A stretch of 64,000 nucleotides of DNA, taken from the sequence record PV419677.1. One strand, written 5' to 3'. The position numbers and the translations under genes were made by a program. Below are positions 6,013 to 32,839 of the stretch, one piece after another. Each line of letters begins with the position of its first letter. Position 1 is the first letter of the stretch. A model generated the notes under the pieces. That model saw only the letters and a list, made by a program, of their open reading frames with translations, did no database searches and was not told where the DNA came from. This DNA comes from a phage.

Positions 6013-6070
6013 AGTGTTCTCCTCATAAAGTAGGAATTCATTATACTCCCTCCATCCTTGGAAGTAAACA

Positions 6071-8590: not shown

Positions 8591-8626
8591 TTTATTCTCC
8601 AGTATTTGGTAACTCAGTATGGGAAC

Positions 8627-8656
8627 ATTATACGCCCATCCCCATACCATGTACAC
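8627..8656 (-). promoter_or_regulatory. sigma70-like early promoter (-35 GTGTAC, -10 GTATAAT)
   Basis: plus-strand gtacac and attatac about 17 bp apart, followed by the conserved CCATACTGAGTTACC leader. Confidence 0.45.
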
Positions 8657-8967: not shown

Positions 8968-9174
8968 TCACTTGCGACGACGTTTTGGTAATGGTTTAGG
9001 GAAGAACATTGCTTTACCGGCAGGGGTCAAAGTCACACGCAAAGCATTACCAATACCAAGGGATGCTTTAACCAGACCTTTGGCTTTTAACTCACCAAAT
9101 GCTTGACGTTGTTCAGGGTCACGAGTGTTAACCATCAGACCTTTTTCACCAGCAGCTTTGATTAATTCTAACAT
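8968..9174 (-). CDS. small basic protein
   Basis: 68 aa, KR-rich C-terminal tail; preceded by repeat promoter/leader. Confidence 0.5.
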   Translation of the reverse strand: MLELIKAAGEKGLMVNTRDPEQRQAFGELKAKGLVKASLGIGNALRVTLTPAGKAMFFPKPLPKRRRK

Positions 9175-9215
9175 TTTATTCTCCGTTTGTTTATTTGGTA
9201 ACTCAGTATGGAATC

Positions 9216-9245
9216 ATTATGCATCATGACCATCTGGTTGTACAC
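9216..9245 (-). promoter_or_regulatory. sigma70-like early promoter (-35 GTGTAC, -10 CATAAT)
   Basis: repeat cassette; followed by CCATACTGAGTTACC leader. Confidence 0.45.
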
Positions 9246-9254
9246 TACTTTTTA

Positions 9255-9280
9255 AAATAAAAAAGGACCCCGAAGGGTCC
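9255..9280 (-). terminator. intrinsic terminator
   Basis: GGACCC-TTCG-GGGTCC hairpin followed by a U-run on the minus strand, just 3' of the ORF ending at 9288. Confidence 0.6.
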
Positions 9281-9287
9281 TTAGAAT

Positions 9288-12298: not shown

Positions 12299-12501
12299 TA
12301 TTCCACCACATATGATAATGAGAAAATTGCTGATGAAAGATGAGTAGCATCTTCTTCACACAGTTCAAATGGAGCTTTCTGTAAGAGTTCAACCACTTCT
12401 TCATCAGTGGCACTGTCCATAAAGATTGCATAATCATTAAGATAGATAACAACCTCATCACCAGTATTAACTGCATTAATCTTGATATTTTTAATTCTCA
12501 T
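12298..12501 (-). CDS. hypothetical acidic protein
   Basis: ORF track, 67 aa; preceded by promoter cassette. Confidence 0.45.
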   Translation of the reverse strand: MRIKNIKINAVNTGDEVVIYLNDYAIFMDSATDEEVVELLQKAPFELCEEDATHLSSAIFSLSYVVE

Positions 12502-12572
12502 TGTGTTCTCCTCAGTAGTTGATGGGATAATAGTACACCCTTTTTATGAGGATGTAAACCCCTTAATGAAAA

Positions 12573-12598
12573 AAGGTCCACCCGAAGGCAGACCTTTT
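12573..12598. terminator. symmetric hairpin flanked by A-run and T-run (possible bidirectional terminator)
   Basis: aaaaGGTCcacccgaaggcaGACCtttt. Confidence 0.4.
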
Positions 12599-12601
12599 GA
12601 A

Positions 12602-15956: not shown

Positions 15957-16415
15957 TTAGATATAAATCACTTTTGTGCTAATTTTTCCTTCCAGACGAT
16001 TAGAGTTAACAAACGCCATACGACAACACATGGTCGGAGACTTCCCAGGAATAGCGGGGTTAACTGTCATTCCTAACCACAGGTTCTTGTCTGTGATTTC
16101 CAGACGAAGTGGACGGTAGTTCACATTCGGGTCAATTTGTGCTTCAACTTCCGGGAGTGGTTTCATTTCCAGGAATTCAACGATTTCTTTTACATGTGGT
16201 GTGATTTTTCCAAACAAGTCAAAAACATATTGTTCATCAATTTCACGTTGGATTGCACGGTCCAACAGGTGCGGACTGTACTTAATGAAGAATGCTTCAA
16301 GGCCTGCTTCTTTACAAGCCTTGTTGATAGCATTATTAATTTTGAGGAACTCCGTTTCAAAAATGCGACGAAGTTTATTGCGGCGAATGTAAACACTTGA
16401 ATCGATAGTAGTCAT
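15957..16415 (-). CDS. regB: RegB site-specific endoribonuclease
   Basis: from MTTIDSS: VYIRRNKLRR..HLLDRAIQREIDEQYVFDLF matches T4 RegB as recalled; 152 aa. Confidence 0.8.
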   Translation of the reverse strand: MTTIDSSVYIRRNKLRRIFETEFLKINNAINKACKEAGLEAFFIKYSPHLLDRAIQREIDEQYVFDLFGKITPHVKEIVEFLEMKPLPEVEAQIDPNVNYRPLRLEITDKNLWLGMTVNPAIPGKSPTMCCRMAFVNSNRLEGKISTKVIYI

Positions 16416-16471
16416 GATTATCTCCTTTTGTTTGATGGGATAATCATAACTCATTTCAATCTGCTTGTACA

Positions 16472-17051
<580 letters not shown>

Positions 17052-18244: not shown

Positions 18245-18508
18245 TTACGCTTTACCGCCAGAAACAATACCAAAGGTATCAAAATCCCATTCAATATTGT
18301 CAACATCAACTTTCTTACCAGCAACCACGAATGCGATTTCGCGGCGTTTTGCATAGGTAACAATTTCTTTACCATCGCCGCCAAAGAAAGAATAACCATT
18401 GCGCTTCATGGTGCCAAAGTCTTCAGCATCACCAGCGAAGGCGCGGACTTTAAAAGCACCGGTAGGAGCTTTAGCAGATTCAGTAATAAATTCTTGATAA
18501 GTTTTCAT
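18245..18508 (-). CDS. internal-protein-like (capsid-targeting N-terminus)
   Basis: from MKTYQEFITES: matches the T4 internal-protein N-terminal targeting sequence with an I-T-E cleavage motif. Confidence 0.6.
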   Translation of the reverse strand: MKTYQEFITESAKAPTGAFKVRAFAGDAEDFGTMKRNGYSFFGGDGKEIVTYAKRREIAFVVAGKKVDVDNIEWDFDTFGIVSGGKA

Positions 18509-18556
18509 TTTATATTCCATTGTTTGGTTGATAAAATCATTATACAACCTTTTTAG

Positions 18557-18973
18557 TTAAGCGTACACAGCTTTCCCATAGTATTTGTACCAGGTAGGCT
18601 TTTGAGAAATTTTCTCATTCAGTCTGGCTTGACTGATTTCAATTGACCAGATTGATGGTTGATAATCATTTTTCCATTCATCAGGAATATCACTTAAATC
18701 TTGGGTAGAAATATCTTTTATGTTAAACCCTCGCTTTAAACATTCTGCAATAAGTTCTTGATGACGGTTTTTAAGGAACAAAAGTTTATCATAAAAGAAG
18801 GTAACATGACCAGTCCCTAAAAGAAAAGATGATGGAATTTTAAAGTCAGAAACCTTTTTACCATTTTGCACATGCTTACGAACAGCGCCAAAAACGCGAG
18901 GAAGTTCACGATATTCAGCCATAAGATGTTGGTCAGCAAGTTCAGATACCAGGGTTAAATTAATGCGAGTCAT
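18557..18973 (-). CDS. denV: endonuclease V (pyrimidine dimer glycosylase)
   Basis: 138 aa; [35 protein letters not shown] matches T4 DenV as recalled. Confidence 0.85.
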
Positions 18974-18999
18974 GTTTGTTCTCCGTAGTTGATAGGGTC

Positions 19000-19029
19000 A
19001 TTATAACCCTATCATTTGGAGATGTACAC
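19000..19029 (-). promoter_or_regulatory. early promoter with -10 TATAAT inside a perfect inverted repeat
   Basis: gatagggt-tataat-gaccctatc on the minus strand with GTGTAC about 17 bp 5'. Confidence 0.45.
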
Positions 19030-19517
19030 TAATATGCGTCAAAAGTTCCGGTACGGAACGTTTCTATAACTCGTTTGGCTCGGTTCGGAGTCTGGACTTT
19101 ATACCATCTTGAGTCCGCCAGTTCCTTAGCAGCCGCTTCCCATGATTTAGCCTTCAGAAGTCGCATACCCTTAGGAAAACCAGCAACACCAGCAACACCC
19201 ATCTGGAATACCATATTAATGAGTGCACAACGACGAACTTCATCAAGTACATCATAAACAGGTTTTAAGACAGGGTGTCTCAAGATTCCGGCTTTAGCTT
19301 TTTCGACCGAACGATTAAACAATGTTTCAGCTTCGTGTTGGGTTATACGGCCATTACAGACACGACCCATGAGCTTGTCGAGCTCGGCGCGAGCGACATC
19401 TTTAGATGGGTTCTTAGTTATCAGTTGCCCGATACCAATGGTCCAATAGCCTTCAGTATCTTTATACAAATCCAACTTACAACCTTCATCTATGCGTAAC
19501 ATTTCGAATATATTCAT
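19029..19517 (-). CDS. e: lysozyme (endolysin)
   Basis: 162 aa; [37 protein letters not shown] matches T4 lysozyme. Confidence 0.95.
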
Positions 19518-19550
19518 AATACCCCCTTATATAGGGGTATTTATTATCCG
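19518..19550 (-). promoter_or_regulatory. hairpin covering the e ribosome-binding site
   Basis: ccccttatatagggg inverted repeat immediately 5' of the e ATG. Confidence 0.45.
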
Positions 19551-20002
19551 AAAATTTGAGTCATTACCTTGTACATCGATTTACCCATCACATACTGCCA
19601 TTGACTCGGTTTAATCAAAGCAAATGCATCGAACTCTGGAACCGAACTACCATCCGGAAAGGTATGATAGGCAGAGCATTTACTATGTCTGAACTGCTCA
19701 TGCTCGACCGGAACCGTGTACAAAAACAGGTGAAGGTTTTTATTATCTGAATAACGGAACTCACCCAGGTCCTTTAAGAATGCTGGGTCATATTGGGTAA
19801 ACCCAGTTTCTTCTTCGCATTCACGGATAGCAGCTTCAATCGGGGATTCACATGCTTCAACATGACCCTTAGGGATGTCCCATTTGTGCGCAGGCATACC
19901 TGGTTTACGAGAACCGGTAACACGACCCATGAACAACTCTTTATCTTCAGTCATGAAAATAATGCCAGCAGATAATTCTTTCACCTTGTTTTTCTTACTC
20001 AT
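19544..20002 (-). CDS. nudE: Nudix hydrolase
   Basis: Nudix box GHVEACESPIEAAIRECEEETG; ATG at 20002 chosen (152 aa). Confidence 0.8.
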   Translation of the reverse strand: MSKKNKVKELSAGIIFMTEDKELFMGRVTGSRKPGMPAHKWDIPKGHVEACESPIEAAIRECEEETGFTQYDPAFLKDLGEFRYSDNKNLHLFLYTVPVEHEQFRHSKCSAYHTFPDGSSVPEFDAFALIKPSQWQYVMGKSMYKVMTQIFG

Positions 20003-20231
20003 CGTCGCGCTTCCAAGATTTTTTAAAGATTTCGGCCATAATAGTTTCAACGCATGTTTCTGTTGATGGGCTTTCACTATCAGTTATTCGAACCATATAG
20101 TCGGAAATTGGTCGGAACATATCCAAGTCAGTTTCTAAATCATCTTTGATTTTCTCTTCTGATGTACCTGTATCATAGGAATACAGATAAGAATCACACG
20201 ACTCTGATTTAATATAAATTGCAATACTCAT
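19995..20231 (-). CDS. hypothetical acidic protein
   Basis: ORF track, 78 aa. Confidence 0.5.
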   Translation of the reverse strand: MSIAIYIKSESCDSYLYSYDTGTSEEKIKDDLETDLDMFRPISDYMVRITDSESPSTETCVETIMAEIFKKSWKRDDE

Positions 20232-20815
20232 TTACGGCATTCCTCAATAAAAGAGTTCAATGTATTTTTCTTGGCGATATCGTCGTATACCTTTTTAACT
20301 TTAGAAATACGAAAAGGTACTTCAATAACCATAGTCCATAAAAGTGATGCAATAAGTCCAACAGCAGCAGAAGAAACGCACGCGCCCATTACAGCTACAG
20401 GTGCTTCATTTTTACCTGTCAGGAAAAACCACAGGATTGGTAAAAATAAGATTCCAGCCCATGCATAAAATCTGGAACAAATTAACTTATCAAATTCATC
20501 TTTCCAGGTACGAAATCCATATTTCTTGCTATAAGAAATTAATGGGTCTGGTGTCTGTTCTTTGAGTGGTTCTGGTTGATGCCCATTAATGATGTATCCC
20601 ATTTTATATTCCTTAATTAAAAGCTCTTTCATATGACGATTGCATCGCGACCAATCAACATTTTCAACCTTGATTCCTTCATCACCATCATCAAGGTTTG
20701 CCCAATATTTTTTGGTAATCATAAATTCATCTCTTGATACAATTATACCTGCATTTTCTGCCCGCCGGATGAAGTTTACATCAACACCCATACAGCCAGG
20801 TTCATAAAGGGCCAT
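20228..20815 (-). CDS. membrane protein with FIEECRK tail
   Basis: 195 aa; two hydrophobic helices near the C-terminus. Confidence 0.55.
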   Translation of the reverse strand: MALYEPGCMGVDVNFIRRAENAGIIVSRDEFMITKKYWANLDDGDEGIKVENVDWSRCNRHMKELLIKEYKMGYIINGHQPEPLKEQTPDPLISYSKKYGFRTWKDEFDKLICSRFYAWAGILFLPILWFFLTGKNEAPVAVMGACVSSAAVGLIASLLWTMVIEVPFRISKVKKVYDDIAKKNTLNSFIEECRK

Positions 20816-21558
20816 TACCAGCCCTCCATGGGGAATTCCAGATATACTTGAGCATTAACGCGGATTTCATTTGTAATCTTTTTAACACGGTCGGTATTAC
20901 GAGACACACGACCAAACCAGCGCCAGCCGTTACTTACTGCGCGGGAACCTGTATGCCATGTCTGCCAATCAAACTGGAGCAACGTGCGGTCAGGAGCATC
21001 CCACTTAGTTAATTCATTGGACTCAATTTTTTCCAGAACTTCTTTATGCCACTGTCGATAGATAAGTTCACCATCAGGAATCTGACTAAATTGCGCAGTT
21101 CCTGTTGCAAAATAAGTAGGACACACATCAGCGTTAACAAGACCAAGAATATGTTCAGAATGGTAACGAGGATTATCATAATCAGGTTGTCCTGCGGTAA
21201 TAAAGTGTCGACCAACCGGAATATCTGGGCGTGGTACATCATCATGGTGATAACCTGGGATAGCAGGATACCAACCAGGCATCAGCATATGAACCCGGGA
21301 ATCAAATACAACCTGGTCAGTGTTCCAATCATCCGGCAGACTCATGATAAAGCTACGAGTAATAGGACCGCCATTGTCAAAAGCGAAAGCCAATGAGCTG
21401 TTGAAGAACATAGTTTCGTTTTTGATTTTATCATTAGAAATTTTACCAGCGAAACTACCTACTGCATGAGCTTGGGAATTAAAAGTTTTTGGACCGTTCA
21501 TAATATTTTCCTCATTGATTGTGGGACCATTGTGTCGTAGTCCCACTTGGATATACAC
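20815..21558 (-). CDS. hypothetical protein
   Basis: ORF track, 247 aa. Confidence 0.5.
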   Translation of the reverse strand: MYIQVGLRHNGPTINEENIMNGPKTFNSQAHAVGSFAGKISNDKIKNETMFFNSSLAFAFDNGGPITRSFIMSLPDDWNTDQVVFDSRVHMLMPGWYPAIPGYHHDDVPRPDIPVGRHFITAGQPDYDNPRYHSEHILGLVNADVCPTYFATGTAQFSQIPDGELIYRQWHKEVLEKIESNELTKWDAPDRTLLQFDWQTWHTGSRAVSNGWRWFGRVSRNTDRVKKITNEIRVNAQVYLEFPMEGW

Positions 21559-21560
21559 AA

Positions 21561-22541
21561 TTATTTTTCGAAAGGACGAATTAAATGTTGGTTAGCCTTG
21601 AAACGTTTAACATAGTCTTCGTGACCCAGGGTGTTGTACATATTAACCACTTCCTGGTAATGTTCCCAGGCATACTCGCGGAACCATCCAGAAGTAATGG
21701 AGGTACAGACTTTTTCTAGTGCAATATGGAAGCTCACGGATGGAGAAATATTGAACTCATTAGGAACCTGCGAACGCTCCAGAGCAAGTACACATGCTTC
21801 TTCATAAACCCCAGCCAGTTTAATAATCTCAGGGAGTGCTTCAAATTTTTCACGCGAGGTCATAACTTCTGAATTATCCTTCATATAGAACTTATATGCA
21901 GGCTTATCAGCAAGCGCCACGGCCTCGTGGATGGAGTCATGGTCAAGGGTATAGATTGTATCATTAAAGAAAGCTTTCTTATCCACGTCTAGTTTAGGGT
22001 GGCTATATGACAATGTTTCTGCCTGGCGCTGCAGCATGATTTTATGCAGTTCGTCATTAAGAACAACCCCCTTATTGCGAAGGTAATTAATATGACTCAT
22101 GGTCTTCAGGAAGAATGGATTGTTCTTCAGGTAACGATGAGACAATTTAATTGCCAGACAAATATCAGGAGTCGCCCAATAGAAACCAGATAGACGGTCT
22201 TTCTGAATATTTGCCTTCGCATATTTGAGTAAACGATAACTGGAGGTAAAATCTTCCTCTTGTAGCTCATCAGTCAGCTCACGAACACTTGTCAATGCGC
22301 GGACGATGTACGCTTCAAAATAGGTTTCTTTACCATTGTGCATACATTTAAAAGCTTGAACATCTGGGTTATCCACATGCACATGTTGTCCCATCATCTG
22401 GGTTTTAAAGCTATTCCAGGAGCCCTGGTCAGCGATAAAGTCCCAATCAGAGTTTTCAATTTTCTGACTTTCAATCAGACCAGCGTTATGTAATGCACGA
22501 GAACCAATAACTAACATCATAATATTTTCCTCAAATAACAC
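21561..22541 (-). CDS. hypothetical protein, possible nucleotidyltransferase-like N-terminus
   Basis: VIGSRALHNAGLIESQKIENSDWDFIA (GS..DxD-like, atypical spacing). Confidence 0.5.
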   Translation of the reverse strand: MLFEENIMMLVIGSRALHNAGLIESQKIENSDWDFIADQGSWNSFKTQMMGQHVHVDNPDVQAFKCMHNGKETYFEAYIVRALTSVRELTDELQEEDFTSSYRLLKYAKANIQKDRLSGFYWATPDICLAIKLSHRYLKNNPFFLKTMSHINYLRNKGVVLNDELHKIMLQRQAETLSYSHPKLDVDKKAFFNDTIYTLDHDSIHEAVALADKPAYKFYMKDNSEVMTSREKFEALPEIIKLAGVYEEACVLALERSQVPNEFNISPSVSFHIALEKVCTSITSGWFREYAWEHYQEVVNMYNTLGHEDYVKRFKANQHLIRPFEK

Positions 22542-22772
22542 TTAAATTTCAGCAGCAGAGATATTAGATTCATCTATCATCTCAGAGGCGGACCCCTTAA
22601 CGATAGGAACCAATTTGCCATAGAGGTCTTCATTGTAAGGGTCGTTGATACAGTGTGCATCTTCAAAACAAACACCGTAATCAGACTTCTTATAAACGAG
22701 ACCGTAAATCTTTGTAAACTTAGCACGACTAATTTTTACAGGCTCATCAGTCATTGGGGCGTAATACCACAT
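22542..22772 (-). CDS. hypothetical protein
   Basis: ORF track, 76 aa. Confidence 0.5.
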   Translation of the reverse strand: MWYYAPMTDEPVKISRAKFTKIYGLVYKKSDYGVCFEDAHCINDPYNEDLYGKLVPIVKGSASEMIDESNISAAEI

Positions 22773-22875
22773 AATGTTTTCCTCATTAGTTGACGAAATA
22801 ATGATACTACATTTCTTTAGGCTTGTACACTAAATTTCTGCACATAAGTCCTCCTACCACATCCGTGTGGCTAAA

Positions 22876-23103
22876 TTATTTTCCCAACGAAATACGAGTA
22901 GGTTTTTTGCCAAAATATTCTTCATAAGAACCATCTAAACGACCTGCTTTAGACCGACAATATGAATCATACTTTTTATAATAGGTCAACTCGGTATTAT
23001 AACGTGGGTGTCTATCAGCCATAATAATACTTAACGGCCAACCTTTGGCATAATCGCGAAGACCATTTATTTTACGAATGTATCTTTTCTTTAATTTTAG
23101 CAT
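22876..23103 (-). CDS. small basic protein
   Basis: ORF track, 75 aa. Confidence 0.45.
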   Translation of the reverse strand: MLKLKKRYIRKINGLRDYAKGWPLSIIMADRHPRYNTELTYYKKYDSYCRSKAGRLDGSYEEYFGKKPTRISLGK

Positions 23104-23321
23104 GAGCTCGGGTACCAGATTTTACCATCGGAGCGAGCAACGAAGGTACGACCAGCTTCTTCACCATAACAAGAGCTATTCAGCCAATCTTCAAGACGAA
23201 CTTCACCGTCGTAATCATCTAGCTCAACACCAAAATCTTGAGCGTTAGCCATATCTTTTACTTTCTTATACAGCGCAGCCAGTTCAAGAGCTGCTTTTTC
23301 CAATTCATTAATATTAGACAT
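23097..23321 (-). CDS. small acidic protein, W-x-S-S-C tail family, member 1
   Basis: 74 aa; ends GKIWYPSSC. Confidence 0.6.
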   Translation of the reverse strand: MSNINELEKAALELAALYKKVKDMANAQDFGVELDDYDGEVRLEDWLNSSCYGEEAGRTFVARSDGKIWYPSSC

Positions 23322-23330
23322 TTTTATTCC

Positions 23331-23561
23331 TTAGCAAGACATAGAGGAGTTAAACCAGAAACCCTGGCCATCATTGATGCCATAATCACTGCGAATCCAG
23401 TCATATTCTTCATATTCTTCGCTAGAAGCCGGAATATAACGTTGGAAACGGTCTGCGGCGTGTAAATTAAAAATTTCACCGGTTTTATCGGCTAACTGCT
23501 CACCTTCACAGATTAGTGCACGGATTTGGTCTTCAATTTCTTTAACAGTTTTAGTAGTCAT
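23331..23561 (-). CDS. small acidic protein, W-x-S-S-C tail family, member 2
   Basis: 76 aa; ends GFWFNSSMSC. Confidence 0.6.
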   Translation of the reverse strand: MTTKTVKEIEDQIRALICEGEQLADKTGEIFNLHAADRFQRYIPASSEEYEEYDWIRSDYGINDGQGFWFNSSMSC

Positions 23562-23570
23562 TTTATAACC

Positions 23571-23768
23571 TTAGCATTCATAAGAGGAGGACACCCAAGA
23601 GGTACCGCTAATAGTAATACAACCATTATAAAGCGTAATATGTTGTTCCAGATTACGCTGACCGTCAATATAGATATCAGCTTCTTCGCGTTCTTCTTTG
23701 CAAATCTGGATAACGTTTTCAATAGCTGCCGCGGCAGTACGGATTGCACAATCTAATTCACGAGACAT
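23571..23768 (-). CDS. small acidic protein, W-x-S-S-C tail family, member 3
   Basis: from MSRELD; ends TSWVSSSYEC. Confidence 0.6.
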   Translation of the reverse strand: MSRELDCAIRTAAAAIENVIQICKEEREEADIYIDGQRNLEQHITLYNGCITISGTSWVSSSYEC

Positions 23769-23776
23769 ATAATTCC

Positions 23777-24058
23777 TTAACATTCAGAAGAGGAGGACAC
23801 CCAACCGCCATTTTCTAGGTCGGTTGTGTAGTCATGAGTATTAACAATAGCCCATTCAGGATGACCATCTTCTTCCCAATGAGCAAGGTCAGCTTTCAAG
23901 GCGCCAGGAGAATAATAGTCACCGCCCATACCGCGAGCAGGGTATATATTAAAATGAGTCTCATATTTGTCTGCAATTTCCTCAGCACGGCGAATGGCTT
24001 CATGGATTTCTTTTACTGCGGCCAGAAGCTCTGGTTGGTTATGGTTATCATTCATCAT
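23777..24058 (-). CDS. small acidic protein, W-x-S-S-C tail family, member 4
   Basis: from MMNDNH; ends GGWVSSSSEC. Confidence 0.6.
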   Translation of the reverse strand: MMNDNHNQPELLAAVKEIHEAIRRAEEIADKYETHFNIYPARGMGGDYYSPGALKADLAHWEEDGHPEWAIVNTHDYTTDLENGGWVSSSSEC

Positions 24059-24059
24059 A

Positions 24060-24350
24060 TTAGCACACCTCAGAAGAGGAAACCCATGCACCAACAGTAA
24101 CAACACCGTTTTCAACTCGCCCGCCGTTGTTTTCAATATGGTGAGCAAACCATTCAGAACATTCATAACCAACTGGATGATATGTACGGCCGGTGCCATA
24201 ATCGCCAGTGCTGAATTCAATACCGTACTTGTCGGCAATTTCTTCACATTTGGATTCGATGGTGTCTACTTTACTCAACAGGTCATAGATGGCTTTTTCT
24301 GCAGATTTCTCGTCGGTGTATCCAGGGATTTCAATTTCAATTTTATTCAT
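24060..24350 (-). CDS. small acidic protein, W-x-S-S-C tail family, member 5
   Basis: 96 aa; ends GAWVSSSEVC. Confidence 0.6.
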   Translation of the reverse strand: MNKIEIEIPGYTDEKSAEKAIYDLLSKVDTIESKCEEIADKYGIEFSTGDYGTGRTYHPVGYECSEWFAHHIENNGGRVENGVVTVGAWVSSSEVC

Positions 24351-24700
24351 GATTTACATTCCTTAATAAAGGTTTCAAGGTCATTACGTTTTGTTTTGTC
24401 TAGGAACTTATTATACTCAGCCATTGCCAAAGCGTATCTCTTCCGGCTAGGAGCATTCACGGCGTTTGTATGACAGATATCATACACAACAGGGATAAAA
24501 TAAGCCACAACAGCCGGAGCGATTATCATAAAGAACCCCATCTCAATAGGCATGACTCCCTCGATTGCAGCCATAACCGTGGTCATTACCAGACCAACCA
24601 AACCACCGAGCATGGCGGTGACAATTCCCAATAATAAATTGCCGCCAATATCATATTCAGCCAATTGATAAACATGTGATGCAAGACTAGGCCGTTCCAT
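24347..24700 (-). CDS. membrane protein with FIKECKS tail
   Basis: from MERPSL; two hydrophobic helices. Confidence 0.5.
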   Translation of the reverse strand: MERPSLASHVYQLAEYDIGGNLLLGIVTAMLGGLVGLVMTTVMAAIEGVMPIEMGFFMIIAPAVVAYFIPVVYDICHTNAVNAPSRKRYALAMAEYNKFLDKTKRNDLETFIKECKS

Positions 24701-25082
24701 TACGAACCTCCTTAATAAATTCTTCGGCACATTTAATTTTGTGCTCTTCTTGTAGGGAAACACATTTTTGTTCCCACTCTTTAACTCGCCCACGATATCC
24801 TTTATTCATATGATTTTGATGCCACGCATTTATCAATATCATACTCAGGACCGTAATAAAAGGAGCTGCGATTATTAGCGCCCAGGCAACTCCAACACTA
24901 ATGATATCCATATCCCCACAAAGCACCATCATTATAACCCCAACGATGCACATGGACAAAGCTCCAAATGGAGGCATAAGGTCTTTATCAATCTTGTCTG
25001 CGTATACAAATTTTTCTGGTTTACTTGGCAGATATAACGTTCGCATTTTGAACCCCTTTAGCATATTCACGACATTCAGCAA
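24687..25082 (-). CDS. membrane protein with EEFIKEV tail
   Basis: hydrophobic helices; start uncertain (25082 or 25046). Confidence 0.45.
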   Translation of the reverse strand: MLNVVNMLKGFKMRTLYLPSKPEKFVYADKIDKDLMPPFGALSMCIVGVIMMVLCGDMDIISVGVAWALIIAAPFITVLSMILINAWHQNHMNKGYRGRVKEWEQKCVSLQEEHKIKCAEEFIKEVRNGTA

Positions 25083-25593
25083 TAAAACGATTAAGCTTAC
25101 GTTTCCGTTTACGACTCTCTAATGTATACTCAGCCGCCAAATCAAGAAGCTCATCTTTATCATAATTTTTAATATCAGTATAAGCTGGGCGGCGGTCAAC
25201 CATTCCAAATACATCGCCATTCTCTAGCGCCACATAACATACTAAATGGTAATCATCATCGGCCACATTAAGAAGTACGCAATCGTTGCTCTCGTTTAAA
25301 GCATACACTGAATAACGTAGTCCAGCGAATTCTGCTTGTTGGATACTCAGATTTACATCAATAATTTCCAAGGCATCTGCAAAAGAAAGGTCTTCAGCTA
25401 AAGCAAAAATAAAAGGCAATTTTGTAGTATCGCCGCGGCTAGTTGTTCTTCTTAAGAAATCATTGGAATAACCCAGGTCACCACGGATTCTATAAAGAAC
25501 TGTGTTAGTTTCAGTGGCAAGACCGCTCCCACCAAACCAATCTACATTTGATATAAGGTCAGTATATAAGCTCATAATATTCTCCTCTCCCAA
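25021..25593 (-). CDS. hypothetical protein with NRFIAECRE near C-terminus
   Basis: ORF track, 190 aa. Confidence 0.55.
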   Translation of the reverse strand: MGEENIMSLYTDLISNVDWFGGSGLATETNTVLYRIRGDLGYSNDFLRRTTSRGDTTKLPFIFALAEDLSFADALEIIDVNLSIQQAEFAGLRYSVYALNESNDCVLLNVADDDYHLVCYVALENGDVFGMVDRRPAYTDIKNYDKDELLDLAAEYTLESRKRKRKLNRFIAECREYAKGVQNANVISAK

Positions 25594-25617
25594 TTAGGGG
25601 GCAAAGCCCCCTTTATC

Positions 25618-26211
25618 TTACTTAAGTGAATTGATGTATTCTTCAATGTCAGCGGACGTGGTATCCACACCAACCTGTGGGCCTTTGAAGGTTTCAACAC
25701 GCATCAGGGTGTCTTCAATATCAATCTTAGTCAATGCAGCGATTTCAACAACATCATCTGCAGTCGCAATACCCAGGGCAGATACCTTACGGGTTTCGCG
25801 GATGTATTCCAGTTTAACAGCTAGTTCCTGACGAGAATCATCCAGCTCTTTAACTTTCAATTTAATTTCATTACGCATTTCAACATAATCATCGGCCTTC
25901 TTACGAAGTTGTTTAGCAGTGCGGCGATACAGGAGACCCAGTTTAGCATGGACCTGGACATCCGCACCATCAGCAATCAGTTTGCGGATTTCACGCTCTT
26001 TTGAAGCGGCGAGTTGGTCTTTTTCATCGGCCAACGCACGAATGCGTTTTTCTTCATTAACAGACTTAACGTGGGCGGTCTGGAGCTCAGTAATCTTGTC
26101 AATCAGGGTAGAAGCCGCTTGAGTATATTGGTCTTCAATAGACAGGTTTTTTGCCATTGCAGTACCCAGTTTGGAGCGGATGAATTCAACAAGTTTCTTT
26201 AAAGTATTCAT
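25618..26211 (-). CDS. coiled-coil protein (tentatively PspA/IM30-like)
   Basis: 197 aa, heptad-rich charged sequence; similarity to PspA is only an impression. Confidence 0.5.
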
Positions 26212-26286
26212 GGTATTTCCTTCAGTTGGTTAATGTTTTATTATCCAGGGAACATACTATCATGTTCCCAGAGGTATGTAAACATT

Positions 26287-26685
26287 TTATTTCATTTTTG
26301 CGAGGCAGATTTCATTGGCTTCCCATTGAGCTTGCTTAATAATAGCTTTTGATACAGGAACCTTTTGGCCATAAGTTTTTGACGTTGAGAGAACAATATA
26401 TTTGTTTGTCTCATTATGACAACCCCATGATTTTTCGCCATGAGTACCTTTAACTACAGCTGACACCTCAACAGAACAACCATCAGCTCCAATCTTGGTA
26501 TCCACAATCCATTCATTTCGCTTAATTGCTTCTTCCAATGTTGCCGCTTCCGCCATCCAGTGCGTTTCAGGGTCTATTTGTTCAATCTCACGAGTTAACG
26601 CAACTCCCAAGTCTTTTGCATATTTTTGTTGTTCAGGAGTTAATGAGTCATATAACTTTTTCATTTCTTTATCTTCAATATTCAT
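26287..26685 (-). CDS. hypothetical protein
   Basis: from MNIEDKEM (ATG at 26685). Confidence 0.5.
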   Translation of the reverse strand: MNIEDKEMKKLYDSLTPEQQKYAKDLGVALTREIEQIDPETHWMAEAATLEEAIKRNEWIVDTKIGADGCSVEVSAVVKGTHGEKSWGCHNETNKYIVLSTSKTYGQKVPVSKAIIKQAQWEANEICLAKMK

Positions 26686-26719
26686 AATATTTTCCTCAAG
26701 GGGCTTTCGCCCCATTCAT

Positions 26720-27052
26720 TTAGATTTTGTTTTCCTGCACACCATAATAAAGTTCATCAGACACAATATCCAGGATGCGGCGAACATATTCATCATGGTA
26801 TTGGCAGTCAAAATCAAATGCAACAGTAGTTTCCGCTTTGCGAGTGAATTTAACTTGCACATTCAGGTGATTAACAACGTTAGTTAATTTATCAGTAAAG
26901 AACTCTTTTGCTACCGCCTGTTGGACTTGCACTTTAAACTTGGTGTTACGAATCATATTTTCAGCAGATGCGAAATTACCAGTTTTATCAAAGTCAACAA
27001 GTGCCAGGTTGATGATGAATTTCATTTTATTCTCCAGTGTTTTATTGTGCAA
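26720..27052 (-). CDS. hypothetical protein
   Basis: ORF track, 110 aa; preceded by repeat promoter/leader. Confidence 0.5.
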   Translation of the reverse strand: MHNKTLENKMKFIINLALVDFDKTGNFASAENMIRNTKFKVQVQQAVAKEFFTDKLTNVVNHLNVQVKFTRKAETTVAFDFDCQYHDEYVRRILDIVSDELYYGVQENKI

Positions 27053-27066
27053 CTCAGTATGGAATC

Positions 27067-27096
27067 ATTATGCCTTAAAGCAGGGGGCTTGTATAC
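27067..27096 (-). promoter_or_regulatory. sigma70-like early promoter (-35 GTATAC, -10 CATAAT)
   Basis: repeat cassette with CCATACTGAGTTGC leader; GGGGG..CCCCC hairpin just 5'. Confidence 0.4.
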
Positions 27097-27107
27097 CCCC
27101 TTTTTAA

Positions 27108-27551
27108 TTAAATTTCAAATTCTTTGCGGAAGTTGGAAGCATAAGACTGAACTGATGCTTTGTTGAATCCAAACTCACGCACAATCATATCAATAACAGC
27201 TCTGCGAGCAGCACCATTAGACATATTAACAGTTTTGAACATATCATAGCATAAATCTTTGTTGCTCATACCGGAGCGTTTAGGTGCCTTACGTTCAGCT
27301 TTTGGTTCAGTCTTAGGAGTAGGTTTAACTTCTGGTTTAACCTGTCCATCATTCAGACCTTTAAAAATTTTACCTGCCAGTGTTGCCAGTTTAGCAGCTT
27401 CGCCACGAGTGATACCAAATACTGCCGGGTTAAATGAAATACCTTCAGCTGTCAGACGTTTGAAGAACATACGTGCAGCGGATTGTGCTTCAGCTTCAGA
27501 AGAGTTGTTTAATGCCAGTTTAACATACTTAACCAATTTTGAAGTTTTCAT
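27108..27551 (-). CDS. hypothetical protein, paralog A (VQSYASNFRK C-terminus)
   Basis: from MKTSKL; C-terminal GAARRAVIDMIV..VQSYASNFRK shared with the next gene. Confidence 0.55.
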   Translation of the reverse strand: MKTSKLVKYVKLALNNSSEAEAQSAARMFFKRLTAEGISFNPAVFGITRGEAAKLATLAGKIFKGLNDGQVKPEVKPTPKTEPKAERKAPKRSGMSNKDLCYDMFKTVNMSNGAARRAVIDMIVREFGFNKASVQSYASNFRKEFEI

Positions 27552-27593
27552 TTTATTATCCCGTTTGTTTATTTGGTAACTCAGTATGGGATA

Positions 27594-27623
27594 ATTATAC
27601 ACTATCCCACCTGGAAGTAAAAC
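27594..27623 (-). promoter_or_regulatory. sigma70-like early promoter (-35 GTTTTAC, -10 GTATAAT)
   Basis: repeat cassette; -10 flanked by GGGATA/TATCCC. Confidence 0.45.
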
Positions 27624-27634
27624 ACTTTTCTCAA

Positions 27635-28060
27635 TTATTTTTGAGCTTTGCGGAAGTTGGAAGCATAAGACTGAACAACAGTCTTTTTGATATCATGGGT
27701 GTTAACCAGAACATCAATCAGAGCGCGACGAGCTGCACCATCTGCCATATCAATTTCTGCAAATGCCTGGAAGCAAATGTCACGAGCATTACCAGATTTG
27801 GACCGGATTTTTTCTTCTTTAACTTCTTCAATTGGGAATTCAATCATTTCAGCTTGGATTAATTCAATGATAGATTCTTTTGACTGTTTGGTGTTTACCT
27901 TCAGTTCAGAATTAAGGGACTTGGCAATGGCAACAATCTGGGTTGAAGTCAGATGAATAAGTGCATCTTCACGAATGCAGATTTCACATACTTCGTCAGC
28001 AACCATTTTGTTGGTGATGCGGGTAACAGAGAATGCAGAGGTCAGGGTCAGGAAGTTCAT
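27635..28060 (-). CDS. hypothetical protein, paralog B (VQSYASNFRK C-terminus)
   Basis: from MNFLTL; C-terminal GAARRALIDVLV..VQSYASNFRK. Confidence 0.55.
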   Translation of the reverse strand: MNFLTLTSAFSVTRITNKMVADEVCEICIREDALIHLTSTQIVAIAKSLNSELKVNTKQSKESIIELIQAEMIEFPIEEVKEEKIRSKSGNARDICFQAFAEIDMADGAARRALIDVLVNTHDIKKTVVQSYASNFRKAQK

Positions 28061-28111
28061 TTTATTTCTCCAAAGTTTTGTTTGATTCAGTGTGTAACTC
28101 AGTATGGAATC

Positions 28112-28141
28112 ATTATGCACCCGGTCAATTCGGATGTACAC
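28112..28141 (-). promoter_or_regulatory. sigma70-like early promoter (-35 GTGTAC, -10 CATAAT)
   Basis: repeat cassette with CCATACTGAGTTAC leader. Confidence 0.45.
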
Positions 28142-28171
28142 TACTTTTTGAAGAAAATTTCAAATTTATTC

Positions 28172-28206
28172 GGGGTATAAAAAAGCCCCAACCTTTCGGA
28201 AGGGGC
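28172..28206 (-). terminator. intrinsic terminator 3' of the tRNA/stable-RNA cluster
   Basis: GCCCC..GGGGC hairpin followed by a six-U run on the minus strand. Confidence 0.55.
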
Positions 28207-28215
28207 TATGCCTTG

Positions 28216-28589
28216 CGGCAACCTTGTCGGGGTTCCACCTGCTAAGGCAAGTGTTTGTACGAAACGCCGGGATTTGAACCCGGTTATTAAGTAGTTGACG
28301 CTACTCAATATTTTTAAAAGGCCATATCTCGACCATATCCGAACGTTCCGTCAAAAACGCTGCTCGGCTTACGGCAAAGATATTCCCTCGAATCGATAAT
28401 TCTGTGCGCCGTTTCAGCTGTGATATAAGGGGACATCAACAAATCGTAAAGATTTATTAATGCCAGTCCTTAAACAGGGAACTTCAGTCCGACGACTTAC
28501 CGGTAGCGACCCGGTTTCTTGTTTGTTGCGCCGGTGAATGCTGATAATCAGTCTTCATACGACGGCTTGACTATATAATAGTCTTCATT
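28216..28589 (-). ncRNA. non-coding region 3' of tRNA-Arg, putative stable small RNAs
   Basis: ~375 nt with no ORF-track ORF; hairpins GACTAT-TA-ATAGTC and CTGAT-T-ATCAG; tRNA-like T-arm CCGGGTTCAAATCCCGG at 28266-28282. Confidence 0.4.
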
Positions 28590-28664
28590 TGGTATCCCGC
28601 CCTGGGATCGAACCAGGACCGCAAACTTAGAAGGATCGTATGCTATCCATTACACCAGCGGGAC
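28590..28664 (-). tRNA. tRNA-Arg (anticodon UCU)
   Basis: 75 nt hand-folded cloverleaf: acceptor GTCCCGC/GCGGGAT, T-arm CCTGG-TTCGATC-CCAGG, anticodon loop CTTCTAA, encoded CCA. Confidence 0.7.
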
Positions 28665-28669
28665 ATAGT

Positions 28670-28746
28670 TGGTGACCCAGACCAGATTTGAACTGGTAAC
28701 CTTTCCCTTATGAGGGGACTGCTGCTAACCATTGAGCTACAGGGCC
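28670..28746 (-). tRNA. tRNA with CAU anticodon (Met or Ile2-type)
   Basis: 77 nt: T-arm ACCAG-TTCAAAT-CTGGT, anticodon loop CTCATAA, encoded CCA; D-arm pairing imperfect in my hand fold. Confidence 0.6.
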
Positions 28747-28845
28747 TTAATTCTATTATGAAAGGTTCTTTGAGGGAAGAACCTTTGGTAATAGAGGGTA
28801 CTTAATAATGATATAGTAATAATATCACATAATTCTTAAAGCATA

Positions 28846-29226
28846 TCAACCTTCATCAACAATAGTATGTGTATTGGCATTGACAATCTGCCACCAGTCA
28901 AAACGGTTGAAACCATAACAAGGCTTATTCTCGTTTTCTTTAATGATAACACGCAGTTCATCTTCGGTCGCAGCCTTTGCGATTAAGTCAGCATAACCGC
29001 CGCGAGGATAATAGTTATCACCTGCAAAAAGCAAAAAATTTGTTTTGATATTCTTGAATTCTTCAAGAGTAATAACTGTTCCACCAGGTTGAACAATATC
29101 TACATAACTATACCCTAATTTTTGAGCTTCATCTACCGCTTCAAGCAGGGTGTCATGTGCCCGCCCAATTTGACAATCTGGTTTTTCAGATGGATTTGCC
29201 TGATAATCCGCATACACTTTATACAT
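28846..29226 (-). CDS. hypothetical protein
   Basis: from MYKVYADYQ (ATG at 29226). Confidence 0.5.
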   Translation of the reverse strand: MYKVYADYQANPSEKPDCQIGRAHDTLLEAVDEAQKLGYSYVDIVQPGGTVITLEEFKNIKTNFLLFAGDNYYPRGGYADLIAKAATEDELRVIIKENENKPCYGFNRFDWWQIVNANTHTIVDEG

Positions 29227-29227
29227 T

Positions 29228-29413
29228 TTACTCACCTTTAGAGATTTTATCCATAACGAAAGAGATTGAACCAATTAAAAATGCAACTACTAAAGAGATT
29301 ATATTCTCAGAAGTTGAAAGCATATTCAACATAAAGCCAGCAAACATGCTAAAACCAAAAGCGGTAACAGCAACAAGGGCAGTAACATTTCTAATTAATT
29401 CACAACGTTTCAT
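29228..29413 (-). CDS. small two-helix membrane protein
   Basis: 61 aa, hydrophobic. Confidence 0.45.
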   Translation of the reverse strand: MKRCELIRNVTALVAVTAFGFSMFAGFMLNMLSTSENIISLVVAFLIGSISFVMDKISKGE

Positions 29414-29441
29414 TTTATTCTCCTCAGTAGTTGATGGGATA

Positions 29442-29471
29442 ATTATAATGCAGTTATCCCATCACGTACAC
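29442..29471 (-). promoter_or_regulatory. early promoter with -10 TATAAT inside inverted repeat GATGGGATA/TATCCCATC
   Basis: -35 GTGTAC; arms flank the -10. Confidence 0.45.
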
Positions 29472-29749
29472 TAAATTTTTGTATATTGTCCAGCTTTAAC
29501 TTTTTTCAGTTCACGAGGGCTTACCGCATAAGTGAATGGAGCATTCCAGGAAGAACTGACTTTGTAACCTTTAGTCAACATCATTGCTGAAACTTTCTTG
29601 TTATCAGGACCGTTTTCGCCTTTAACAAGAAACAACTCAAATGCGCCACCATCAACCGGTTTGGCCTTAACCATCAGATGTCCTTTCAGGTCTTCCAGCA
29701 TGTCCGGGTGACTAATTGATTCGTTAATAAATTCTTGATAAGTTTTCAT
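29471..29749 (-). CDS. internal-protein-like (capsid-targeting N-terminus)
   Basis: MKTYQEFINES; 92 aa, basic. Confidence 0.65.
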   Translation of the reverse strand: MKTYQEFINESISHPDMLEDLKGHLMVKAKPVDGGAFELFLVKGENGPDNKKVSAMMLTKGYKVSSSWNAPFTYAVSPRELKKVKAGQYTKI

Positions 29750-29775
29750 TAGTAGCTCCAGTAGTTGATGGGATA

Positions 29776-29805
29776 ATTATACTGCAACTATCCCATCACG
29801 TACAT
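29776..29805 (-). promoter_or_regulatory. early promoter with -10 TATAAT inside inverted repeat GATGGGATA/TATCCCATC
   Basis: -35 ATGTAC; near-identical to the cassette at 29442-29471. Confidence 0.45.
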
Positions 29806-30104
29806 TACATTTTTGAACCACGAATTACGCCATAAGCGGCGAAGTCGTCAGTGATATTTTTAGGAGTGTTTTTACCCGTTTCAATGAAAGCAATGCTTGA
29901 TTTCTGACTAAAAGAGGTAATTTTGTTATAGTTAGAGTCAAGGAAGGTATAACCATTTTTACGCAGCTGGTCAAAGTCTTCAGCATCGCCTTTACCTTTG
30001 AAGTCAACCCATTTGTAGGTGTTTTTCTTCTGAAGGCCCAGAGGCCAGGTTTTTGCTTCCGCCAGGTAATTGTTTTCTACCAAAAATTCATGGAGCGTTT
30101 GCAT
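29805..30104 (-). CDS. internal-protein-like (capsid-targeting N-terminus)
   Basis: MQTLHEFLVEN; 99 aa; shares GKGDAEDF..KNGY block with the ORF at 18245. Confidence 0.6.
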   Translation of the reverse strand: MQTLHEFLVENNYLAEAKTWPLGLQKKNTYKWVDFKGKGDAEDFDQLRKNGYTFLDSNYNKITSFSQKSSIAFIETGKNTPKNITDDFAAYGVIRGSKM

Positions 30105-30385: not shown

Positions 30386-30393
30386 AAGAAACC

Positions 30394-30726
30394 TTATTTA
30401 TAAAGTTTTGCCAGTTCTTTACGTCCGCGAGCAGACATAATAAATTGTTCATCGCCAATTTTAAAATAAGCCATACCGCCGTCAACAGCGATACCAATTT
30501 CTTTAGTACCTTCTTTGCCTTTCCACTTGCCACCAGATTTCAGGACAGCTTCAACTGCAGCTTTGGAATATTTGGACGTTTGAAAACGTTCATTACCAAT
30601 CTGAAAGAAAACACCATCTGCATTTTTGGTTAAACCAAATTTCAGAGAGCCTTCACTATCATCAATTGATTTGGTCTCATTGATGGCGGATTCGGCTAAA
30701 AACTCGTTGTAAGTTTTGATGTTCAT
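30394..30726 (-). CDS. internal-protein-like (capsid-targeting N-terminus)
   Basis: MNIKTYNEFLAES from ATG at 30726; 110 aa. Confidence 0.6.
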   Translation of the reverse strand: MNIKTYNEFLAESAINETKSIDDSEGSLKFGLTKNADGVFFQIGNERFQTSKYSKAAVEAVLKSGGKWKGKEGTKEIGIAVDGGMAYFKIGDEQFIMSARGRKELAKLYK

Positions 30727-30789
30727 ATTAACTCCATTGTTCATTCGTTGGTGTAGGAACATAATACTGCACCTACACTTATTTGTACA

Positions 30790-31480
<691 letters not shown>

Positions 31481-32754: not shown

Positions 32755-32839
32755 AATGCACCTTGTTTGCTTTAAAACAATCAGTGTTATAATGGTTCTA
32801 GACCTTTTGTCCTTACCAATAACACTGACCGATAATAGA

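Follow-up and report, generated by a model that had tools for sequence, protein, structure and literature searches.

Why should the -10 element of an early promoter lie inside an inverted repeat? The question is raised by sequence record PV419677.1, a stretch of 64,000 nucleotides of phage DNA (hereafter the window), in which several minus-strand promoters, among them the one before denV, carry complementary arms on either side of the -10 hexamer. An initial annotation of the window proposed that this symmetry marks either an operator for a dimeric regulator or a recombination-prone cassette, and raised a possible relationship with the promoter-early stem-loops (PeSLs) described in T4-type phages. 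We find that these hairpin-wrapped early promoters are real, but that they are an ordinary module of T4-like phages, already described as PeSLs. We further propose, as the likely overall picture, that they are PeSL-type cassettes whose hairpins act as RNA-level insulators on read-through transcripts.

Between positions 18000 and 30000 the window is 100% identical to Shigella phage fPSFA and ~92% identical to SP18, VR20 and related phages. By this sequence comparison it derives from a T4-like phage of the genus Gaprivervirus (Tevenvirinae), as do its relatives SP18 and VR20. The early and middle genes form a minus-strand block that extends up to ~35.5 kb and includes regB, ip genes, denV, e, nudE, tRNAs, trna.4, 57B, 57A, 1, 3 and 2; late genes then follow on the plus strand. 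All of the cassettes described here are early-region elements of the minus strand (6-31 kb); the late-gene half contains none.

We scanned for early promoters with the pattern G/T-T-G/T-T-A-C, a spacer of 17-18 nucleotides (nt) and TAnnAT or CATAAT, and also read every intergenic gap. This yields 16 predicted intergenic early-promoter cassettes on the minus strand (each cited below by a single coordinate; see the table), which together with a doubtful site at 3493 make 17 sites. Site 3493 matches the promoter pattern at or inside the start of an open reading frame (ORF), has no arms and is excluded from the cassette list. A search for the longest perfect Watson-Crick stem with arms flanking the -10 found arms of 7-11 bp at 8 of the 17 sites (30790, 29805, 29471, 27622, 26283, 21558, 19029 and 8656). 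When the flanks are shuffled with their composition preserved (2000 trials), arms of >=7 bp occur at a mean of 0.24 sites and a maximum of 3. The signal is strongest when the search is centred on the -10 and drops once the centre slides by >=12 nt. The stems enclose loops of 6-17 nt, and RNA folding of the eight arm-bearing cassettes gives z-scores of -1.7 to -5.5, with a minimum free energy of -20.5 kcal/mol for the denV cassette 19029.

The layout that the initial annotation described, with inverted arms round the -10, is thus borne out, and the sequences are found at the minus-strand positions it gave. Its list of arm-bearing sites is real but incomplete, as five were passed over, three inside the range it covered (27622, 26283 and 21558) and two outside (30790 and 8656). 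The spacer is 17 nt if the -35 is read as TGTACA, and a consensus scan lists TGTACA-17-TATAAT at 19028, 30789, 28140, 22829 and 16471; with GTGTAC or GTTTAC as the -35, the spacer in the window ranges from 17 to 18 nt. GTGTAC is the preferred hexamer here (10/17 sites), whereas T4, JS98 and most relatives use GTTTAC. Cassettes 12559, 16472 and 22830, which had been listed as related, share the promoter and the leader with the others, but their arms round the -10 measure at most 5 bp and they form other helices. Two internal-protein genes had been assigned to 29.4-29.8 kb. The ORF behind cassette 29805 starts MKTYQEFI and is internal-protein-like, but the ORF behind cassette 29471 is an orthologue of Trna.4 (67% identity to T4 Trna.4). 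These two cassettes are a 91% direct repeat, 334 nt apart (family D3), and would be the natural substrate for cassette-bounded mini-circles. Nine of the 17 early promoters lack arms of >=7 bp round the -10. At such promoters there may instead be a canonical terminator immediately upstream (12559, 9245), or a helix elsewhere: a hairpin that encloses the -35 (27096), a stem within the spacer (28141, 12559, 6069), or a helix that runs from the -10 to the Shine-Dalgarno (SD) sequence and AUG (16472).

Within ~55-75 nt, a cassette combines a sigma-70 early promoter (G-T-G/T-T-A-C, 17-18 nt, TATAAT-like), preceded by an A/T-rich tract, with a stem-loop and with a conserved leader that has a GGAG SD and a start codon. 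In many cassettes the -35 shares bases with the stop codon of the gene before it (TAGTGTAC): TA often precedes GTGTAC and gives TAG. The A+T fraction in the 20 nt before the -35 is 0.74, against 0.61 for the region (P < 0.0002, 5000 random sets). All 16 cassettes carry an SD and a start codon at their 3' end, with predicted leaders of 20-45 nt, and the leaders belong to two repeat families, CAACTAC(T)GAGGAG...ATG and ATACTGAGTTACCAAATAAACAAACGGAGAATAAAATG. Perfect copies of GGAGAATAAAA occur four times in the window (0.04 expected), every one of them inside a cassette leader. This 11-mer is the optimal site of the T4 endoribonuclease RegB (Durand 2006, PMC1702504), which cuts single-stranded GGAG in early intergenic regions (PMC1702504). 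The leader of cassette 29471, CAACTACTGAGGAGAATAAAATG, includes the RegB optimum site, and a RegB orthologue is encoded in the window behind cassette 16472. The 5' arms are G-rich and the 3' arms C-rich. This matches the early-promoter logos of T4-like phages, in which the sequence 5' of -12 is rich in G and T, and positions -3 to -1 carry C residues (PMC1524935, PMC2988021). Stems at early promoters are mentioned neither in reviews of T4 early transcription (PMC2988021) nor in the five-genome promoter survey (PMC1524935).

PeSLs are defined by an AT-rich tract, a sigma-70-like early promoter, a stem-loop, and an SD with start codon (PMC2839356, PMC4122927). Five subclasses are distinguished by the position of the stem, the commonest being 'between -35 and -10' and 'overlapping the -10 box' (PMC2839356). 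They have been described in RB49/phi1, PST/T4 and nt-1/KVP40 (Arbiol 2010, PMC2839356; Comeau 2014, PMC4122927), PeSL-like sequences have been noted in JS98 (PMC2839356), and PeSLs are enriched in hyperplastic regions and at indels (PMC2839356, PMC4122927). The window cassettes show all of the sequence-level defining features that we tested. Eight stems enclose the -10 (7-11 bp), one encloses the -35 and three lie inside the spacer; the stem cores are G-runs and C-runs; the sites precede small ORFs in the variable early regions; and close relatives differ by indels and replacements at the cassettes. With stems overlapping the -10 being a named common subclass, the window elements are of the same kind as the published ones, as the initial annotation had surmised, and we consider their assignment as PeSL-type promoter/stem-loop cassettes highly probable.

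The window cassettes differ from the RB49/phi1 elements in the -35 (GTGTAC/GTTTAC, the T-even type, instead of TTGACA) and in the stem cores (G3/C3 instead of G4/C4), and sequence homology to the RB49/phi1 elements was, by these two features, not found. In the literature, T-even-type elements are analogues, not homologues, of the RB49 elements (PMC2839356), and judged by sequence the window cassettes are PeSL-type by architecture, not by descent. According to the 2014 figure legend, the stems of the PST/T4 PeSLs immediately precede the promoter, but many of those in the window and in T4 enclose the -10. One RB49 stem-loop acted like a terminator, cutting downstream lacZ expression as the strong terminator rrnB T1 does (PMC2839356); the -10-enclosing hairpins of the window lack T-runs. 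T-even internal-protein (IP) loci carry analogous elements on T4-type early promoters (PMC2839356, citing Repoila 1994). These are found at the same loci, with ip genes by denV/e and by 57B/trna.4; they are likewise based on early promoters with stem-loops, and gene shuffling is confined to those loci. T4 itself has the layout with arms before denV, ipI (10 bp), ipII (14 bp), ipIII (8 bp), regB, trna.4 and e.7, so that arms of 8-14 bp surround the -10 in all three ip cassettes, and its trna.4 cassette reads ATAGGGT/ACCCTAT followed by CAACTACTGAGGAGAATAAAATG, nearly the sequences of the window. The window stems are more G/C-rich than the AT-rich ip stems of T4, and the layout extends past the ip loci to denV, trna.4 and ORFs at 8.6, 21.5, 26.2 and 27.6 kb.

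The initial annotation expected genuine cassettes to keep their arms in related phages, and they do. In comparison with SP18, VR20, VR25 and VR26, 172 of 190 arm pairs are unchanged, and the arms are retained while the loop, the flanks and the distance from arm to -10 vary. Variability in the four relatives is 15.8% in the non-arm spacer, 9.5% in the 5' arm and 4.1% in the 3' arm. Downstream of 57B, the arms are identical in all four, while loop and flanks differ; orthologues of the trna.4 cassette retain ATGGGATA/TATCCCAT round a loop of 9 nt instead of 11-13 nt. Because these relatives are too similar, evidence for covariation rests on different cassettes and on more distant phages. Upstream of denV, an early promoter with an inverted repeat is found in almost every T4-like relative, with arm pairs that are unrelated to one another (TCTCCTGTAG/CTACAGGAGA, ATCTCCGTTTG/CAAACGGAGAT, TTCCTCCAAG/CTTGGAGGAA, TTGATG/CATCAA and others). 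Downstream of 57B, at least five unrelated complementary arm pairs occur in different phages, the T4 pair being TGATGAGGTA/TACCTCATCA. In the sequences of these distant phages, where replacement of a whole cassette is indistinguishable from stepwise compensation, complementarity is retained rather than a recognition sequence, as it also is between the paralogous cassettes of the window.

The denV site also varies within the genus. SP18 and VR26 have the same cassette as the window, and VR20 and VR25 carry a different inverted-repeat cassette there, with TTGATG/CATCAA around TATTAT in place of the window's 19005-19032; this is a cassette replacement at an orthologous position within one genus. 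VR20 (9660-9965) and VR25 also have an extra IP-like ORF (MKTYNEFL...) between e and denV, whose ATG overlaps the stop codon of e.

For a broader view, we collected 229 distinct cassettes from the window, SP18, T4 and ~60 further T4-like loci in IMG/VR; the set is de-duplicated by exact sequence only and its members are phylogenetically related, which makes the p-values optimistic. A helix (score >=6) encloses the -10 in 128 of the 229, against 36 +/- 4 in shuffles. If only the spacer is shuffled and a score of >=7 is required, helices whose 3' arm adjoins the -10 number 70 against 4.3 +/- 2.0, and those whose 3' arm lies on the SD number 38 against 3.4 +/- 1.4. The window cassettes mostly belong to the former class. 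A helix is present in 10 of the 39 cassettes that have a canonical terminator <=70 nt upstream, and in 118 of the 190 that do not (odds ratio 0.21, p = 3.5e-5); cassettes 12559 and 9245 of the window, with a terminator upstream and no -10 arms, fit this pattern. Helix and upstream terminator thus appear to be alternative ways to handle incoming transcripts, and we regard this anticorrelation as the most telling support for an action on read-through RNA. Together with the two helix classes, each ~10-fold or more over expectation (score >=7), it suggests that the hairpin is part of the early-transcription logic and not a recombination linker alone. A helix aimed at read-through RNA, as the same two lines of evidence suggest, goes beyond the published accounts consulted.

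How could such a helix distinguish between transcripts? General sigma-70 geometry would put the start of transcription ~7 nt past the -10; this falls within the 3' arm or beyond it, and the 5' arm would always lie upstream of the start site. RNA from the cassette's own promoter would therefore lack the 5' arm and be unable to form the helix, leaving an unstructured leader, while RNA from upstream promoters would contain both arms and fold. In computed folding, read-through RNA reaches -11 to -25 kcal/mol and the own leaders 0 to -3, and own leaders are less structured than their shuffles (p = 4e-17). Sense RNA is also more stable than antisense, by ~1 kcal/mol (p = 4e-4). The hairpin in read-through RNA would then mark and insulate the cistron boundary. 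Its effect may be attenuation or pausing of transcription, or, once the neighbouring RegB-type GGAG site has been cut, it may leave the upstream message with a stable 3' end. The latter is suggested by the position of the hairpin, 10-15 nt before the RegB-type site, and agrees with a published view of mapped T4 transcript ends, which takes them for the ends of stable RNA and not for termination sites (PMC6024815). In a minority of cassettes, the hairpin would occlude the SD. The location of the -10 in the loop may be a packing solution in a gap of ~55 nt that starts at the stop codon: with both promoter hexamers fixed, only the spacer and the discriminator/+1 region are left to vary and would take up the arms, hence the -10 in the loop. 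On the whole, we lean towards the hairpin working at the RNA level on read-through transcripts.

This arrangement resembles that of T4 e, soc, 49 and I-TevI, where the proximal promoter likewise sits in the 5' strand of a helix or ahead of it and only distal transcripts fold. Those are late promoters, however, and their 3' strand always covers the SD/AUG, whereas the 3' arms of the window mostly stop before the SD. The 3' strand lies over the SD/AUG at 16472, at 12559 and in the outer helix of 19029, but not in the -10-proximal helices of 30790, 26283, 8656 and 27622. Intrinsic terminators upstream of promoters are similar in being intergenic G/C-rich hairpins that are met by RNA from the upstream gene. 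They differ from the -10 hairpins of the window, which have no T-run and loops that reach 17 nt. As a speculative extension, which we think rather doubtful, the helix across the start site could serve T4-like phages generally as a 'transcript-origin discriminator', at more than half of their early promoters. If this were true, read-through RNA would differ in structure from RNA started at the gene's own promoter, and for each cistron the helix would decide between translation of an RNA copy, its cleavage by RegB and stabilisation of its 3' end. What textbooks describe for four late promoters (e, soc, 49 and I-TevI) would then apply to the early transcriptome as a whole, and the unexplained 'extra consensus' of early-promoter logos would correspond to the stem arms. 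A link with DksA through the discriminator was also considered and dropped: in the T4 literature, the effect of DksA is tied to no discriminator motif (PMC6024815).

The recombination-prone cassette of the initial annotation stands as an association. As breakpoints we took the ends of BLAST blocks between the window and SP18, VR20, VR25 and VR26 (9.3-35.5 kb), which approximate crossover points. Cassette intervals make up 5.4% of the sequence and contain 15 of the 45 breakpoint clusters (binomial p = 6e-9); counted by gene junction, the association is less strong. Block ends 19005, 27598 and 29447 coincide with -10 hexamers, and 27598, in the -10 of cassette 27622, is the end of a homology block with VR20 and VR25. 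Block end 29720 is the end of a 10-codon leader common to ip genes. An indel of gene 26287-26715 has one boundary at 26269, in the 5' arm of cassette 26283, and insertions in SP18 and VR26 near cassette 21558 have boundaries at 21514/21550 and 21565. Between conserved cassettes, the ip genes of the window differ from those of VR25 and VR26. Both the breakpoints and these gene differences match the PeSL shuffling model. Here, the repeated 50-60 bp of homology and the 10-codon IP leader would offer crossover points as a side effect of the cassettes, and crossovers would shuffle, delete and insert small genes between them. The leader, MKTYQEFI..., recurs with its first 10-11 codons at four minus-strand ORF starts (18477-18509, 29718-29750, 30354-30386 and 30689-30721) and is the capsid-targeting leader of internal proteins. 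Since the homology blocks of the relatives start exactly at its end (29720), we read it as acting together with the promoter cassette as a shuffling linker.

Several observations weigh against conserved hairpins that act on read-through RNA and mark recombination points. Among the four closest relatives, none of the 190 pairs shows a compensatory double substitution, their divergence being too low, and the 3' arm is conserved no better than the rest of the leader. The relatedness of the 229 cassettes, as stated, flatters their statistics. Of the 13 cassette junctions, 9 have a breakpoint, as do 16 of the 43 other gene junctions (p = 0.04), a modest enrichment. The advantage in stability of sense over antisense RNA is small, and mismatches in the helices divide into 7 G-U and 7 A-C, which is uninformative on RNA versus DNA level. 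No -10-enclosing hairpin is followed by a T-run, and none appears in the minus-strand terminator list; canonical intrinsic termination by these hairpins is rejected on sequence, and the terminator part of the PeSL concept is only putative for them. Finally, occlusion of the SD is clear in just 4 of the 16 window cassettes. When read-through RNA is folded, SD accessibility falls at 16472, 12559, 19029 and 29805, whereas the unpaired probability stays the same at 30790 and 26283 and hardly moves at 8656 and 29471; SD occlusion as a universal function in the window is rejected. For the regB cassette, the computed probability that the SD..AUG region is unpaired is 0.80 in its own transcript and 0.20 in read-through RNA.

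These results also bear on other explanations of the symmetry. If the arms were half-sites of an operator, at which a dimeric phage or host regulator shuts off early promoters, the overlap of the dyad with the -10 and the GGG/CCC in most arms would be accounted for, and the shut-off of T4 early promoters is still called not fully understood (PMC3014915, PMC2988021). Such a regulator would, however, face seven different arm sequences (GTGTAGG, TGATGGGATA, TGGGATA, GGGAACAT, GTGGGAC, TGATAGGGT and GTATGGG), half-sites whose centres are 14-24 nt apart, and a dyad centre that shifts relative to the -10. It would have to do without such arms at 9 of the 17 early promoters in the window and accept unrelated pairs at the orthologous positions before denV and downstream of 57B, and it does not predict the anticorrelation with upstream terminators. 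The operator proposed by the initial annotation is, on these grounds, hardly credible. We also think it very improbable that complementarity is incidental, with a G-rich spacer and a C-rich discriminator each tuning RNA polymerase kinetics, even though the composition of the arms and the logos cited above would be expected on that basis. Composition-keeping shuffles yield 4-15 helices where 70-84 are observed, the positions and lengths of the arms vary, helices reaching the SD are in equal excess, and the helices avoid promoters with upstream terminators.

It is established DNA biophysics that loops such as the 6-17 nt seen here disfavour cruciform extrusion. This is one reason why we judge improbable an action at the DNA level, in which a hairpin or cruciform in single-stranded or supercoiled DNA is seen by a structure-specific protein or nuclease and turns the cassette into an active recombination hotspot. 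The clustering of breakpoints in cassettes, several exactly at a -10 or an arm boundary, would suit this explanation, as would the unbiased mismatches; Arbiol 2010 speculate about a protein targeting GGGG...CCCC stems, and PeSL mini-circles have been detected (PMC2839356). Yet the 50-60 bp of homology are alone enough for T4 recombination (PMC2839356) and the enrichment of breakpoints is weak at gene junctions, while the terminator anticorrelation, the greater stability of sense over antisense RNA and the unstructured own leaders point to a role at the RNA level. Within that level, the helix could mainly serve to mask the ribosome-binding site and the RegB site in read-through RNA and thereby restrict translation of the gene to RNA from its own promoter. 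This mechanism has its precedent in T4 e, soc, 49 and I-TevI (Uzan and Miller 2010, PMC3014915), and RegB requires single-stranded GGAG (PMC1702504). Spacer and SD pair in 38-46 of the 229 cassettes against 3-10 expected, including T4 denV, T4 regB and most denV orthologues, and the four falls in SD accessibility in the window agree with it. Most window helices, however, stop directly behind the -10, so that the SD, 10-25 nt further downstream, stays accessible, and a translation gate as the sole function is a misfit with the cassettes flagged by the initial annotation. We therefore consider it an unlikely main function and prefer PeSL-type cassettes whose hairpins insulate cistrons from read-through RNA, with SD occlusion in a minority.

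For the annotation of Gaprivervirus genomes, the cassettes give transcription-unit boundaries and true start codons, and they explain gain and loss of small early and internal-protein genes between close relatives. As internal proteins include the anti-restriction factors Ip1 and Ip2 (PMC12373910), the shuffling points matter for host range.

Table. Early-promoter cassettes of the window, with promoter elements, arms or other helices, and folding z-scores
Feature	Coordinates	Strand	Promoter, leader and start codon	Arms or helix	z
denV cassette (19029)	18971..19029	-	-35 GTGTAC 19029..19024; -10 TATAAT 19005..19000; ATG 18973	inner arms TGATAGGGT 19014..19006 + ACCCTATCA 18998..18990; outer arms TCTCC 19022..19018 + GGAGA (SD) 18984..18980	-5.5
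IP-like ORF cassette (29805)	29747..29805	-	-35 ATGTAC; -10 TATAAT 29781..29776	TGATGGGATA 29798..29789 + TATCCCATCA 29775..29766	-3.8
trna.4 orthologue cassette (29471)	29411..29471	-	-35 GTGTAC; -10 TATAAT 29447..29442	TGATGGGATAA 29464..29454 + TTATCCCATCA 29442..29432	-3.9
Cassette downstream of 57B (30790)	30724..30790	-	-10 TATTAT 30766..30761	GTGTAGG 30778..30772 + CCTACAC 30757..30751	-2.4
Cassette 27622	27549..27622	-	-10 TATAAT 27599..27594; type-B leader	TGGGATA 27609..27603 + TATCCCA 27593..27587	-2.8
Cassette 26283	26209..26283	-	-10 TAGTAT 26259..26254, partly within 3' arm	GGGAACAT 26269..26262 + ATGTTCCC 26255..26248	-2.8
Cassette 21558	21499..21558	-	degenerate promoter GTGTAT, N18, CACAAT	7 bp, GTGGGAC 21546..21540 + GTCCCAC 21527..21521	-1.7
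Cassette 8656	8588..8656	-	-10 TATAAT 8632..8627; leader with GGAGAATAAAA	GTATGGG 8647..8641 + CCCATAC 8623..8617	-1.7
regB cassette (16472)	16413..16472	-		no arms round -10; helix GATTATC 16445..16439 (begins in -10) + GATAATC 16422..16416 (SD-to-AUG spacer)	
Terminator + cassette 12559	12499..12600	-		terminator GGTCTGCC-TTCG-GGTGGACC + T6, then cassette without -10 arms; spacer TCCTCA 12552..12547 pairs with SD TGAGGA 12514..12509	
Terminator + cassette 9245	9172..9290	-	GTGTAC ... CATAAT; type-B leader with GGAGAATAAAA	terminator GGACCC-TTCG-GGGTCC + T6, then cassette without -10 arms	
Cassette 27096	27023..27101	-	-35 GTATAC	hairpin GGGGG 27100..27096 / CCCCC 27087..27083 round -35, not -10	
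Cassette 28141	28058..28141	-	type-B leader	spacer-internal helix CATCCG / CGGGTG, one G-U pair	
Cassette 22830	22770..22830	-	-10 TATCAT	weak 5-bp arms GAAAT 22815..22811 / ATTTC 22799..22795 round -10	
Cassette before internal-head-protein gene	18506..18568	-		weak 5-bp arms GGTTG 18549..18545 / CAACC 18530..18526 round -10	
Cassette 6069	6010..6069	-		spacer-internal helix CTTCCA / TGGAGG, one G-U pair; no -10 arms	

Three of the tabulated cassettes belong to a tandem arrangement at 27023-28160 (minus strand), in which three modules, each a type-B cassette with an ORF of ~100-147 amino acids, follow one another at spacings of 527 nt and 518 nt. Two of the ORF 3' ends contain a 31-nt stretch that is 100% identical (27122-27152 and 27646-27676). 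By its sequence the region looks like a cassette-bounded paralogue array, and VR20 and VR25 have one extra unit there.

Hairpins that surround other elements also occur on the minus strand. A late promoter within a hairpin precedes gene e at ~19509-19549 (AATAAATACCCC-TATATAA-GGGGGTATTATG), its 3' arm forming the SD/start as in T4 gene e, and a late-promoter hairpin of the same design is found at 3188-3237. A third layout of this late-promoter type lies in the divergent region that separates the minus- and plus-strand gene blocks (35492-35554), where GCCTCC...GGAGGC encloses TATAAATA in its loop. Upstream of gene 7157-8002, GCTTTA, N12, TATAAT at 7994-8071 resembles a MotA-dependent middle promoter more than an early one.

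The only tRNAs at 28237-28746 (minus strand) are tRNA-Arg and tRNA-Met, whereas the SP18 annotation gives Arg, Asn and Met. At gathering thresholds, Rfam matches two tRNAs only, and none of the cassettes. Positions 28237-28319 hold CGGCGTTTCGTACAAACACTTGCC, a sequence that also adjoins T4 rnaC/rnaD, and may represent a homologue of the T4 small stable RNAs; Rfam gives no match for this candidate.

Two minus-strand genes close to the end of the block vary between the relatives. Gene 32840-33514 is missing in SP18, VR20 and VR26 and present in VR25; gene 34320-35048 is missing in VR20, VR25 and VR26, and the SP18 locus ends short of its position. Homology blocks stop at 32843/33502 and 34335/35062. 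PHROGs matches identify the former as a homing endonuclease (E = 2e-56) and the latter as an endonuclease (E = 2e-29), and the two have probably inserted among genes 3, 2 and 4 as mobile endonuclease genes. Adjoining the inserted endonuclease gene, a 10-bp inverted repeat (TCAGTGTTAT / ATAACACTGA) with a 29-nt loop lies at 32746-32845 (minus strand), before gene 32155-32754, the gp3 orthologue, at a place where a promoter is not evident.

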